From Escherichia phage Turkey5, in sequence record PQ471516.1: a stretch of 64,000 nucleotides of DNA; one strand, given 5' to 3'. Position numbers and translations under genes: made by a program. The notes under the pieces are model-generated. The model had not been told where the DNA came from. It searched no databases and was given only the letters and a program-made list of their open reading frames with translations. Within the stretch, counting starts at the first letter, position 1, and each line of letters opens with the position of its first letter. Positions 4,425-6,778 of the stretch are shown here, in pieces.

Positions 4425-4452
4425 TTGACAACAGCAAATAATGTGATATAAT
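4425..4452 (+). promoter_or_regulatory. Sigma70-type early promoter (TTGACA-16 nt-TATAAT)
   Basis: TTGACA 4425-4430, TATAAT 4447-4452, then GTTTATT and RBS AGGAGA before ATG 4493. Confidence 0.6.
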
Positions 4453-4492
4453 GTTTATTAATTAGAGTGAGTTTAATCACATAGGAGAACAC

Positions 4493-6778
4493 ATGAACCT
4501 GACACAACTATTCAAGAAAAGCGACGAACTGGCAACCTCTATGGGTCATACTTTTTTGACAATTGACCATGTGAGTGCTACAGTACTGACAGTTGATAGC
4601 ATTGTTGACGTATTCAAGTCGATGGACATTGACGCTGCAAAGCTTCATGCACGTTTGATTGATTATTTGAAAAACAACCCAGTTCCACCAGCACCAAAAA
4701 GTACTTTAGATGATGACTCGAACCGTACTTCACTTCTAGTGAATCGCGTGATGCAGGAACTGTCTAAAAAAGCAGTGATTGAACAGCTAAATCGTGATGA
4801 TTTCTCCATTGATGCATATTTTGTTCTGTTTGAATGTTTGTCCTTCCCAAATACTGCATTCGAAGCAGTACTGAAAGAAGAAGGGGTTTCTTGTACTGAA
4901 GTAGCACGTACACTACAGAAACATGTAGAAGATATTGATACTGGCATCAACCTAAAAAGTATTAGCGACGAACCAACAGGGGACAAAAAAGTGGCTCAAC
5001 AGCAACCAGCATCTAAGCAGAAAAGTTTGGAAGATTACACTACCAACCTTACCGCACTAGCGAAGGAAGGTAAACTCGACCCAATGATTGGTCGTCAAAA
5101 AGAGCTTGCTTCTCTCGTTGAGACTCTTGCTCGTAAAACTAAGAAGAACGCAATCCTAACTGGTGAAGCTGGCGTAGGTAAAACTCAAATCGTTGATGGT
5201 TTGGCACAAGCAATCGCAAATGGTGATGTTCCAGATCATCTAAAAGATGTGGAACTACTGTCTCTGAACGTTGGTGCACTAACTGCTGGTACAAAATACC
5301 GTGGTGAGTTTGAAGAACGCATTGACAATCTTCTAAAAGAACTGAAGAAACGCGAAAACACCATCGTCTTCATCGATGAAATCCATATCATGGTTGGTGC
5401 TGGTTCTGCGAGCAACGGTTCAATGGATATGAGCAACATGCTCAAACCTGCTCTATCTCGTGGTGAGATTCGTGTCATCGGTGCAACCACTTATGACGAA
5501 TATCGTAAAAACATCGAGAAAGACAGTGCTCTATCACGTCGTTTCATGAAAATTGATGTTGTTGAACCAACAGTTGAAGAAACTCGTGAAATTATCAACG
5601 GTCTACAAAAGACTTATGAGAAATTCCACAATGTAACCTTCACTAAAGGTGCGATGGATGCAGTTATTACACTAAGTGATAAGTTCCTGAAGAACAAACA
5701 CTTCCCTGACAAAGCAATCGACCTAATGGATGCGTCAGCAGCGAAGAAACGTTCTCGTGACAATGGTAATGAAATTACTGTTGGTGATATCCAAGAAGTT
5801 GTTGCTGGAATCGCTAACCTAGACCTGAACGTAGTTGCTTGTACTGAAAGTGAGCGTATGCGTAGTCTTCCTGATGCACTTCGTTCTCGTGTATATGGTC
5901 AAGAAGAAGCAGTAACTAAATTGGTTGATAACGTGATGGTTGCTCGTGCAGGTCTACGTGAATCTTCCAGTGTTCAGGGTGCATTCATGTTTGTTGGACC
6001 ATCTGGTACTGGTAAAACTGAAATCACTAAAGCGTTGGCTGATGCAACTGGTTCTAAACTGATTCGTTTCGATATGTCTGAGTTCTCACAAGAACACACT
6101 GTGTCTAAACTTATTGGTTCACCTCCAGGTTATGTTGGTCACGATTCTGGTAACGGCCTACTGCTAGACCAGATTGAGCAATACCCGAATGCAGTGCTGC
6201 TACTTGATGAAATCGAGAAAGCAGATCGTAAAGTACTGTTGACTTTCCTTCAAGTTCTTGACGAAGGTCGTCTAACTGGTTCTCAAGGTAAGACTGTTTA
6301 CTTCAACAACGTAACAGTTGTTATGACAACTAACCTTGGTGCAGCAGACTCTACGAAACGTAGTATCGGTATGAGTGGTAGTGATACAGCACAGGATAAA
6401 GCGATTAAAGCTTTCCTACCGCCTGAATTCATCAACCGTATCGACAGTATCGTTACATTCAATGATTTGTCTTCTGATGCAATTCAGAGTATCATTGATA
6501 AATTCATGGGTAGTTTGAATGAACAAGTTAAAGACCGTGGAGTTAAGGTTTCTCTAACTAAAGCGGCTCGTGAATGGTTGGCGAAGAATGGCGTTAAGAA
6601 CGGAATGGGTGCTCGTCCAATGAAACGTACAATTGAACAGAATATCCGTGTTCCTCTGGCAAAAGAAATGCTTTGTGGTTCACTAGTTGATGGCGGTTCA
6701 GTAACATTTGATGTTATCAACGGTTCACTAGGCATTAAGCCAAAGCGTGTTAAAGCAGCAGATAAAGTAGAAGCATAA
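4493..6778 (+). CDS. clpA: ClpA-like two-domain AAA+ unfoldase (Clp/Hsp100 family, no ClpB middle domain)
   Basis: D1 Walker A GEAGVGKT, Walker B IVFIDEIH; D2 Walker A GPSGTGKTE, Walker B LLLDEIEKA; KRSIGM loop at the position of the ClpA IGL ClpP-docking loop; collinear with E. coli ClpA as recalled. Confidence 0.85.
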   Translation: MNLTQLFKKSDELATSMGHTFLTIDHVSATVLTVDSIVDVFKSMDIDAAKLHARLIDYLKNNPVPPAPKSTLDDDSNRTSLLVNRVMQELSKKAVIEQLNRDDFSIDAYFVLFECLSFPNTAFEAVLKEEGVSCTEVARTLQKHVEDIDTGINLKSISDEPTGDKKVAQQQPASKQKSLEDYTTNLTALAKEGKLDPMIGRQKELASLVETLARKTKKNAILTGEAGVGKTQIVDGLAQAIANGDVPDHLKDVELLSLNVGALTAGTKYRGEFEERIDNLLKELKKRENTIVFIDEIHIMVGAGSASNGSMDMSNMLKPALSRGEIRVIGATTYDEYRKNIEKDSALSRRFMKIDVVEPTVEETREIINGLQKTYEKFHNVTFTKGAMDAVITLSDKFLKNKHFPDKAIDLMDASAAKKRSRDNGNEITVGDIQEVVAGIANLDLNVVACTESERMRSLPDALRSRVYGQEEAVTKLVDNVMVARAGLRESSSVQGAFMFVGPSGTGKTEITKALADATGSKLIRFDMSEFSQEHTVSKLIGSPPGYVGHDSGNGLLLDQIEQYPNAVLLLDEIEKADRKVLLTFLQVLDEGRLTGSQGKTVYFNNVTVVMTTNLGAADSTKRSIGMSGSDTAQDKAIKAFLPPEFINRIDSIVTFNDLSSDAIQSIIDKFMGSLNEQVKDRGVKVSLTKAAREWLAKNGVKNGMGARPMKRTIEQNIRVPLAKEMLCGSLVDGGSVTFDVINGSLGIKPKRVKAADKVEA

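Follow-up and report, generated by a model that had tools for sequence, protein, structure and literature searches.

A ClpA-type unfoldase gene of Rak2-like jumbo phages and a candidate phage-encoded ClpAP protease

Phage-encoded ClpA and its closest relatives

Most Rak2-like phages are reported to carry a highly conserved ClpA (Attai et al. 2018, PMC6102473), and both ClpA and ClpX have been listed among the AAA+ chaperones of jumbo phages, with translocase or virion-assembly roles suggested (Iyer et al. 2021, PMC7824862). Here we describe such a gene in a 64,000-nucleotide stretch of Escherichia phage Turkey5 (PQ471516.1; the window), where an uninterrupted open reading frame (ORF) at 4493..6778 on the plus strand (end coordinate including the stop codon) encodes a ClpA-like protein of 761 amino acids. 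Sequence comparison leads us to propose, with the scales about evenly balanced, that this protein may be the unfoldase of a phage-encoded ClpAP protease, partnered with a ClpP from the same phage across a diverged and possibly private interface and expressed from a host-type promoter.

The closest described proteins are the ClpAs of other Rak2-like phages (121Q gp581, RaK2 ORF069, GAP32_229, CBB gp235 and phAPEC6 gp246c), orthologues with 60-88% identity that share with the window gene its length, its flanking virion genes, an extended -10 promoter and a terminator hairpin. We find no substantive difference between them and the window protein, which is one more member of the group. The 121Q product is annotated 'ClpA-like' and similar notes accompany its counterparts in RaK2, GAP32 and CBB. 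The ClpA-like gene of Rak2-like phages is already known and annotated, and the finding of a full-length ClpA-like unfoldase, as an earlier reading made before any database search had stated it (the sequence-only reading), is ordinary. What has not been described previously is a co-varying, remodelled interface between phage ClpA and ClpP and a C-terminal extension of the ClpP, both of which we advance as hypotheses.

The source belongs to the Rak2-like jumbo phages, whose head and baseplate genes are distantly of the T4 type. The region matches Escherichia phage vB_EcoM_JNE01 (hereafter JNE01; 355,583 bp, Asteriusvirus) at 99.3% identity and the 121Q/PBECO4 group at 80-83%, and the whole window maps to ~116-182 kb of JNE01 at ~99% identity. 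The ClpA shares 99.9% identity with a JNE01 protein whose deposited name is 'hypothetical protein', and 88% with 121Q gp581. The window holds genes for a T4-type portal, a gp21-type protease and gp23, which is the part of the label 'T4-like' that stands; it is a loose label for a Rak2-like jumbo phage of the Asteriusvirus group.

Among solved structures the best match is E. coli ClpA (PDB 1KSF, 6W1Z; 604 bits, in a single collinear stretch of residues 16-739 against 19-733). The two proteins are of similar length (761 and 758 amino acids), 41-42% identical and collinear over 724 residues, and they share the N-domain, D1, D2, the absence of an M-domain, all nucleotide-binding, pore-loop, arginine-finger and sensor residues, and a helix-loop-helix at the ClpP-docking position. 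They differ in the N-domain, where identity falls to ~20%, and at the docking tip, which reads IGM-SGS in the phage and IGL-IHQ in E. coli. The double AAA+ architecture is also that of ClpB, Hsp104, ClpV and ClpC (NCBIfam ClpB, 638 bits; ClpV, 539 bits). Matches to ClpB, ClpC and Hsp104 are split in two, the phage protein having no M-domain between D1 and D2, as its collinear match to ClpA shows. The docking helix-loop-helix that the phage protein keeps is absent from ClpP-independent ClpB-type proteins (ClpB, Hsp104 and ClpV). The jumbo phages MIJ3 (one of the PA5oct-like Pseudomonas phages) and Atu_ph07 (an Agrobacterium phage) encode a full-length ClpA and a ClpP too. Their ClpAs are ~40% identical to the window ClpA, no closer to it than is E. 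coli ClpA, and keep a canonical IGF tip.

Judged by its profiles and motifs, the product is an intact ClpA-type double-ring AAA+ protein. Pfam detects AAA (D1), AAA_lid_9, AAA_2 (D2) and ClpB_D2-small, and residues 2-740 align to positions 4-733 of the 734 in the NCBIfam ClpA model TIGR02639 (754 bits). The protein falls short of the equivalog cut-off of that model (754 vs 993 bits) and of the NF008263 cut-off (654 vs 1350 bits); on these scores it is a diverged ClpA-like protein and not an equivalog of cellular ClpA. From its start, on the plus strand, it comprises a diverged ClpA-type N-domain (residues 1-150, 4493..4942), a variable linker between N-domain and D1 (residues 151-178, 4943-5026), the D1 AAA+ module (residues 179-450, 5027..5842) and the D2 AAA+ module with D2-small (residues 451-745, 5843..6727), both modules being delimited by Pfam, structure alignment and motifs. 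D1 carries the Walker A motif GEAGVGKT (residues 224-231, 5162-5185), the pore-1 loop KYRG (268-271, 5294-5305), the Walker B motif FIDEIH (293-298, 5369-5386) and the arginine fingers SRRF (348-351, 5534-5545). D2 carries Walker A GPSGTGKT (502-509, 5996-6019), pore-1 GYVG (546-549, 6128-6139), Walker B LLLDEIEKA (569-577, 6197-6223), sensor-1 MTTN (611-614, 6323-6334), the arginine finger INRID (647-651, 6431-6445) and sensor-2 GARP (706-709, 6608-6619). The sequence KRSIGM (622-627, 6356..6373) forms the tip of the helix-loop-helix at the ClpP-docking position. All Walker A and B, pore-1, arginine-finger and sensor motifs are kept in eight phage ClpA homologues. The full-length, catalytically intact unfoldase with an N-domain and two AAA+ modules that the sequence-only reading had described holds up, and the pore loops and arginine fingers whose loss it had named as a possible counter-finding are all present in the alignment.

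The N-domain is the most variable folded part of the protein within the clade, with an entropy of 1.57 bits against 0.6-0.7 in the ATPase cores. Of the families expected from the sequence-only reading, AAA, AAA_2 and ClpB_D2-small are found outright; Clp_N is borderline, at 19.7 bits just under the 20.7 cut-off of Pfam. Its homology is given by profile-profile comparison: hhalign aligns the clade N-domain profile to cellular ClpA N-domains over 138 columns and both repeats (94.7% probability, E 6e-8), and a precomputed PF02861 match is present on many clade members.

A phage ClpP and the putative docking interface

The sequence-only reading had noted that the window holds no clpP. That statement holds (tblastn searches with the ClpPs of E. 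coli and of phage give nothing below E=3) but misleads, as near-identical JNE01 carries a clpP at 28365..29060, outside the region matching the window and ~92 kb upstream of clpA. Its product matches Pfam CLP_protease (141 bits), and its catalytic triad S113/H139/D188 aligns to S97/H122/D171 of E. coli ClpP, to which it is 35% identical; the Ser-His-Asp triad is invariant in ~65 ClpPs of the clade. The AlphaFold2 (AF2) model of a 93%-identical relative has a mean predicted confidence (pLDDT) of 92 and superposes on bacterial ClpP structures with template-modelling (TM) scores of 0.94-0.96 and root-mean-square deviations of 1.1-1.5 A. By homology and predicted fold, the JNE01 protein is a true ClpP. 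No Clp-type ATPase other than ClpA was detected in the JNE01 genome: tblastn with E. coli ClpX found no ClpX in the window or in JNE01, the sole match being the D2 module of clpA. In neither was a ClpS homologue found (tblastn with E. coli ClpS, E<=10). The search for a clpP or an adaptor elsewhere in the genome, which the sequence-only reading had proposed, returned a clpP and no ClpS.

RefSeq records of relatives label the phage ClpP 'head maturation protease', a widespread annotation that we correct here; it appears to be a PHROG transfer and is probably mistaken. In the window, the head module includes a protease of its own, a gp21-type Peptidase_S77 (39765..40385) between the portal gene (36749..38485) and gp23 (41660..42835), and for this reason we reject ClpP as the head protease. 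The phage clpP is located among small non-structural genes. Directly 3' of it lies a conserved ORF of ~95 amino acids in every Rak2-like phage checked (29123-29407 in JNE01), whose product might assist the phage Clp system as cofactor or adaptor. The possibility that it encodes a disguised ClpS was rejected (no Pfam match, hhalign probability 0.1%). In RaK2 the annotated ClpP start precedes the conserved one by 16 codons, and its ATG is immediately preceded by a TTGACA; translation probably begins at the downstream Met (MLDQF...).

We searched 50,697 phage records with tblastn and found relatives of ClpA and ClpP in the same genera and in near-identical numbers of records: 32 each in Escherichia, eight each in Salmonella and in Erwinia, four each in Yersinia, and two each in Cronobacter, Pectobacterium, Xanthomonas and Serratia. 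Klebsiella has 11 ClpA and 10 ClpP records because some records are fragmentary. Among distant jumbo phages, both proteins occur in the PA5oct-like Pseudomonas phages (11 records each) and in Atu_ph07. The ratio of nonsynonymous to synonymous substitution rates (dN/dS, omega) of clpA against 121Q is ~0.05, a rough value with dS near saturation, and that of clpP is 0.03; by these estimates purifying selection on both genes is strong.

In the mechanism we favour, host RNA polymerase would transcribe clpA and clpP without phage factors, so probably early. Hexamers of ClpA would engage substrates by the diverged N-domain together with the conserved pore loops, unfold them with ATP and feed them to a tetradecamer of the phage ClpP, docking by way of the retained helix-loop-helix, with its IGM tip, on a phage-specific ClpP pocket and a C-terminal mini-domain. 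Such a pair would be shielded, at least in part, from host ClpP, ClpX and ClpA. Obvious candidate substrates would be host proteins or phage early proteins.

In E. coli, ClpA residues I617-G618-L619-I620 insert into a ClpP pocket formed by L23, L48, F49, A52, Y60, Y62, F82, I90, M92, F112, L114 and L189, and ClpP R192 and E26 make polar contacts with ClpA (bioRxiv 10.1101/820209). The phage helix-loop-helix is present and two residues shorter than that of E. coli ClpA, and its tip reads I-G-M, against the [LIV]-G-[FL] expected of ClpA, followed by S-G-S. The loop is retained at essentially constant length in 110 of 110 clade members, with a hydrophobic first position in 109 and a glycine next in 92. 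The tripeptide itself varies (MGM in 16 members, IGM in 15, IGV in 11, LGM and IGA in nine each, LGL and MSM in eight each, IGG and MNM in five each, IGL in four and IGF in three, besides others), with an entropy of 1.2-2.8 bits in the loop against a D2 average of 0.62, and canonical IGL, VGF or IGF persists in the most divergent members. The sequence-only reading had placed KRSIGM where ClpA has its IGL docking loop; KRSIGM is not a conserved copy of that host motif and, across the clade, represents one of several states through which the tripeptide drifts. The loss of the ClpP-binding loop, which that reading had named as evidence against itself, is not seen at the level of the loop, kept throughout; it is the tripeptide that changes, to forms that include IGG, IGA, MSM and MNM.

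The other side of the contact has changed as well. Aligned residue by residue, the phage ClpP does not keep the canonical hydrophobic pocket for IGL or IGF: the JNE01 ClpP carries Y60T, F82S, F112L, L114G, F49W and, by alignment, R192P, and across the clade, compared with cellular ClpPs, L114 is near-universally G, F82 is replaced by N, S, C, G or Y (near-universally non-aromatic and mostly polar) and Y60 by T. Phages with a canonical pocket have canonical IGF loops on their ClpA. In Atu_ph07 the ClpP is near-canonical (63% identical to E. coli ClpP); in MIJ3 the pocket is partly so (Y60S, F82Y, L114S, L189F, R192K). Patterns among the clusters led us to predict that IGG- or IGA-type ClpAs pair with a ClpP subgroup that has L189Y and E26S, and this advance prediction held in the two complete genomes in which it could be checked, EJP2 and Hallingskeid, where IGG loops accompany a ClpP with Y189 and S26. 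All Rak2-like ClpPs also carry an added C-terminal tail of ~22 amino acids, G-x-[RKQ]-N-E-x-G-[QK]-x-x-V-x-R-R-x-G-x-x-x-W-[VI], which AF2 models with high confidence as three short strands and which is absent from cellular ClpPs and from those of Atu_ph07 and MIJ3.

These differences bear on whether the phage ClpA might dock host ClpP through its IGM loop and redirect host proteolysis to phage-chosen substrates, in line with the reprogramming of host ClpP-dependent proteolysis that the sequence-only reading had suggested. I-G-M is a conservative variant of the host I-G-L, the preceding K-R-S resembles the host R-K-S, host ClpP is abundant at the start of infection, and the window is without clpP. 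The phage genome nevertheless encodes a bona fide ClpP of its own under strong purifying selection, which weakens this idea, and the contact residues I620, H621 and Q622 are replaced by S, G and S (contacts: bioRxiv 10.1101/820209). In E. coli ClpXP, I268L, F270L or the ClpP change R192K abolish docking (PMC7112951). Since such mild changes abolish docking, the divergence of the phage interface argues against free exchange of ClpA or ClpP with host partners, which we consider unlikely on this comparison; the ClpX changes I268L and F270L, which severely impair ClpP binding, are comparably mild to those in the phage loop (PMC7112951). Among the clade's hosts ClpP is canonical and near-identical, and selection for one such pocket would not predict the wide variation of the tripeptide (IGV, LGM, MNM, IGG). 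We regard docking on host ClpP as distinctly improbable.

The main rival to a phage ClpAP, akin to the remodelling that the sequence-only reading had offered as its alternative, is a stand-alone unfoldase or chaperone that acts without ClpP. It would unfold, thread or disaggregate proteins, for example in folding or assembling the adjoining giant tail or baseplate proteins, the phage ClpP then acting separately. E. coli ClpA remodels P1 RepA without ClpP. Of the protein's functional motifs the docking tripeptide is under the least constraint, its third position is Ala or Gly in 16 of 110 clade members and its glycine is lost in MSM and MNM, all of which would suit such a role. Yet the helix-loop-helix is kept at near-constant length down to 52% identity, though ClpP-independent relatives lack this insert, the deepest clade members retain canonical IGL, VGF or IGF, and ClpP always co-occurs in genomes that offer it no other candidate ATPase. 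A translocase or virion-assembly role of the kind proposed by Iyer et al. (PMC7824862) would also fit, and the location of clpA, taken up below, can be read both ways. Overall we judge a stand-alone function unlikely.

A stronger form of the ClpAP reading is an orthogonal protease with a rebuilt interface, in which the contact of IGL or IGF with F82, L114 and Y60 would have degraded on both sides, a contact with the ClpP C-terminal mini-domain would replace it, and no cross-reaction with the host would remain. We hold this only tentatively, as rather less probable than a phage ClpAP in general; if true, an orthogonal interface would permit a substrate-specific degradation program that the host could neither titrate nor regulate.

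Several points weigh against a phage ClpAP. The covariation of loop and pocket rests on ~6 sublineages and could reflect shared phylogeny alone; the IGG, IGA and MSM tips, without bulky anchor or glycine, equally resemble decay of ClpP docking; and the difference at R192 hinges on a one-residue alignment shift, R, K or Q sitting one position downstream. The co-occurrence of the two genes lies within one vertically evolving clade and represents few independent events. The genes are ~92 kb apart, clpP in the exact Turkey5 genome is presumed from a 99%-identical relative, and the 'early' timing is read from the type of promoter only. In CBB, a single ClpP peptide was recovered from virions, and no experiment on this phage family came to light in the literature, where searches on phage-encoded ClpA and ClpP (transcript timing, proteomics, biochemistry) gave genome descriptions and two virion proteomes.

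Some 70 sequenced jumbo phages and many metagenomic relatives carry a complete unfoldase-peptidase pair under host-type promoters. If insulated from the host Clp network, the pair would be a natural orthogonal AAA+ protease, useful as a synthetic-biology part, and could offer large phages a route to remove host defence or regulatory proteins or to time their own program.

Transcription, genomic setting and origin

The sequence-only reading placed its feature at 4425-6778. A real gene is there, with 4425 marking the promoter and the ORF beginning at 4493, the first start codon after a stop. The consensus host-type promoter that it described is borne out: a sigma70-type promoter on the plus strand at 4425..4452 (TTGACA, a 16-nt spacer and TGaTATAAT) matches the consensus at 12 of 12 positions and has an extended -10, within a 111-nt divergent intergenic region. 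No other 12/12 sigma70 match with an extended -10 occurs in 2500..8000, where weaker promoter-like matches in total do not exceed those in shuffled sequence. A ribosome-binding site, AGGAG, follows on the same strand at 4483..4487, 5 nt before the ATG. The extended -10 TGnTATAAT ~40 nt 5' of the ATG is kept in 121Q, RaK2, Munch, GAP32 and CBB, and an aggag or aaggag ribosome-binding site also precedes clpA in relatives. Six bases past the clpA stop begins a palindromic hairpin, AAAAGGAGAGC-ATAT-GCTCTCCTTTT (6784..6809), with a perfect 11-bp stem flanked by A and T runs, terminator-like in both directions; an equivalent hairpin follows clpA in the same five phages. The stop of the convergent gene (6813..16853, minus strand), which encodes a virion protein of 3346 amino acids, abuts it. 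With a promoter on one side and a terminator hairpin on the other, the clpA-like gene forms a self-contained transcription unit, set on the opposite strand inside a late tail/baseplate block between two virion-protein genes.

A strict promoter class, with at least five of the six bases of TTGACA, a 16-18 nt spacer and then TGnTATAAT, shows a strong strand bias in the JNE01 genome: it has 29 members on the plus strand and one on the minus strand, against an expectation of 0.35 per strand. One copy precedes clpP. In JNE01 and 121Q, the clpP promoter is of the clpA type, with TAGACA or TGGACA as its -35 and then TGATATAAT. The clpA copy is the only strict-class promoter in the 100-125 kb structural block of JNE01.

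The setting of the gene is as conserved as its signals. The order virion gene (minus), clpA (plus), giant virion gene (minus) recurs in 121Q, RaK2, Munch, GAP32, CBB, phAPEC6, EJP2 and Hallingskeid and is the same in >60 phage genomes; placement between the 496-aa and 3346-aa virion genes is kept in Asteriusvirus, Alcyoneusvirus, Mimasvirus, Munch, EJP2 and Hallingskeid. This conserved placement would be expected of a stand-alone chaperone for the adjoining virion proteins, as would the location of clpA in MIJ3 and Atu_ph07 directly after a dnaJ-like chaperone gene, a pairing absent from Rak2-like phages, and, in MIJ3, its flanking by structural genes and its position ahead of a large tail gene. 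On the other side, an opposite-strand sigma70 promoter is unlike co-regulation with the neighboring structural genes, JNE01 has no DnaJ, so that a DnaJ partner of the MIJ3 and Atu_ph07 kind was discarded, and no homology was detected between the MIJ3 neighbors and those in the window. Shared synteny of the MIJ3 neighbors with the giant virion gene was likewise rejected, a comparison that covered an N-terminal fragment having given no similarity.

Virion proteomes bear on the same question. In CBB, gp234 and gp236 were detected and gp235 (ClpA), which they flank, was not; in phAPEC6, the products detected include gp245 and gp248 but not gp246c (ClpA). The presence of the flanking products in both virions without ClpA indicates that ClpA is intracellular and non-structural. 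Homologues of the product of the convergent 3346-aa gene (6813-16853, minus strand) are found in CBB and phAPEC6 virions (381.9 kDa in phAPEC6), and the EJP2 record annotates its homologue as a D-alanyl-D-alanine carboxypeptidase.

In a search of 5.8 billion proteins, relatives of the window ClpA grade without a break from 100% to 52% identity within one clade, which comprises ~110 clusters (at 90% identity), many of them on contigs of 330-380 kb. The identical protein is present on 14 contigs, the longest of 354,546 bp. A clear gap then separates the clade from cellular ClpA (~41% identity, ~580 bits), and this gap argues that the acquisition is old and not from the present host, a dating that draws on identity gaps only. 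The gene is a core, vertically inherited gene of Rak2-like jumbo phages, and the 'unusual cargo' of the sequence-only reading proves to be neither unusual nor newly annotated. The G+C content is somewhat raised, at 40.6% in the 4001-6000 bin and 41.6% in the ORF against 37.2% in the window, as a host contaminant, a chimeric assembly or a decaying pseudogene could produce. Third codon positions are 31% G+C against 57% for E. coli clpA, however, the protein is only 42% identical to that of the host, the ORF is uninterrupted with an omega of ~0.05, gene order, promoter and terminator are alike in dozens of independently sequenced phages, and the identical protein is found on many long contigs. 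Composition, divergence and synteny led us to reject the host-contaminant origin that the sequence-only reading had raised against itself: the gene is phage DNA, and the probability of an artefact of any of these kinds is negligible.

Terminase and capsid-proximal variation

Elsewhere in the window, the large terminase (TerL) gene is divided between two ORFs that overlap in different frames (56674..56994 and 56978..58315). The JNE01 TerL is a single 886-aa ORF in which residues ~90-390 are an intein-like insert within the Walker A motif, starting ...RQMGK|ALANNTPILTP and ending ...THN|TTVAAAF. The window terminase is without the insert, and at the insert site one extra C (ATG-C-GGAAAAACAACT, junction ~56934-56940) breaks the frame. 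The extra base is a real lesion or else arose through erroneous sequencing or assembly where the site varies.

Immediately following the major capsid gene is an ORF of 408 amino acids (42944..44170) with CapR, DUF723, zinc-finger and MUG113-like matches, which looks like a homing endonuclease. The segment 42923-44170 is unmatched in JNE01, where another ORF, of 332 amino acids, occupies the same place, and this pattern suggests a mobile-element swap.

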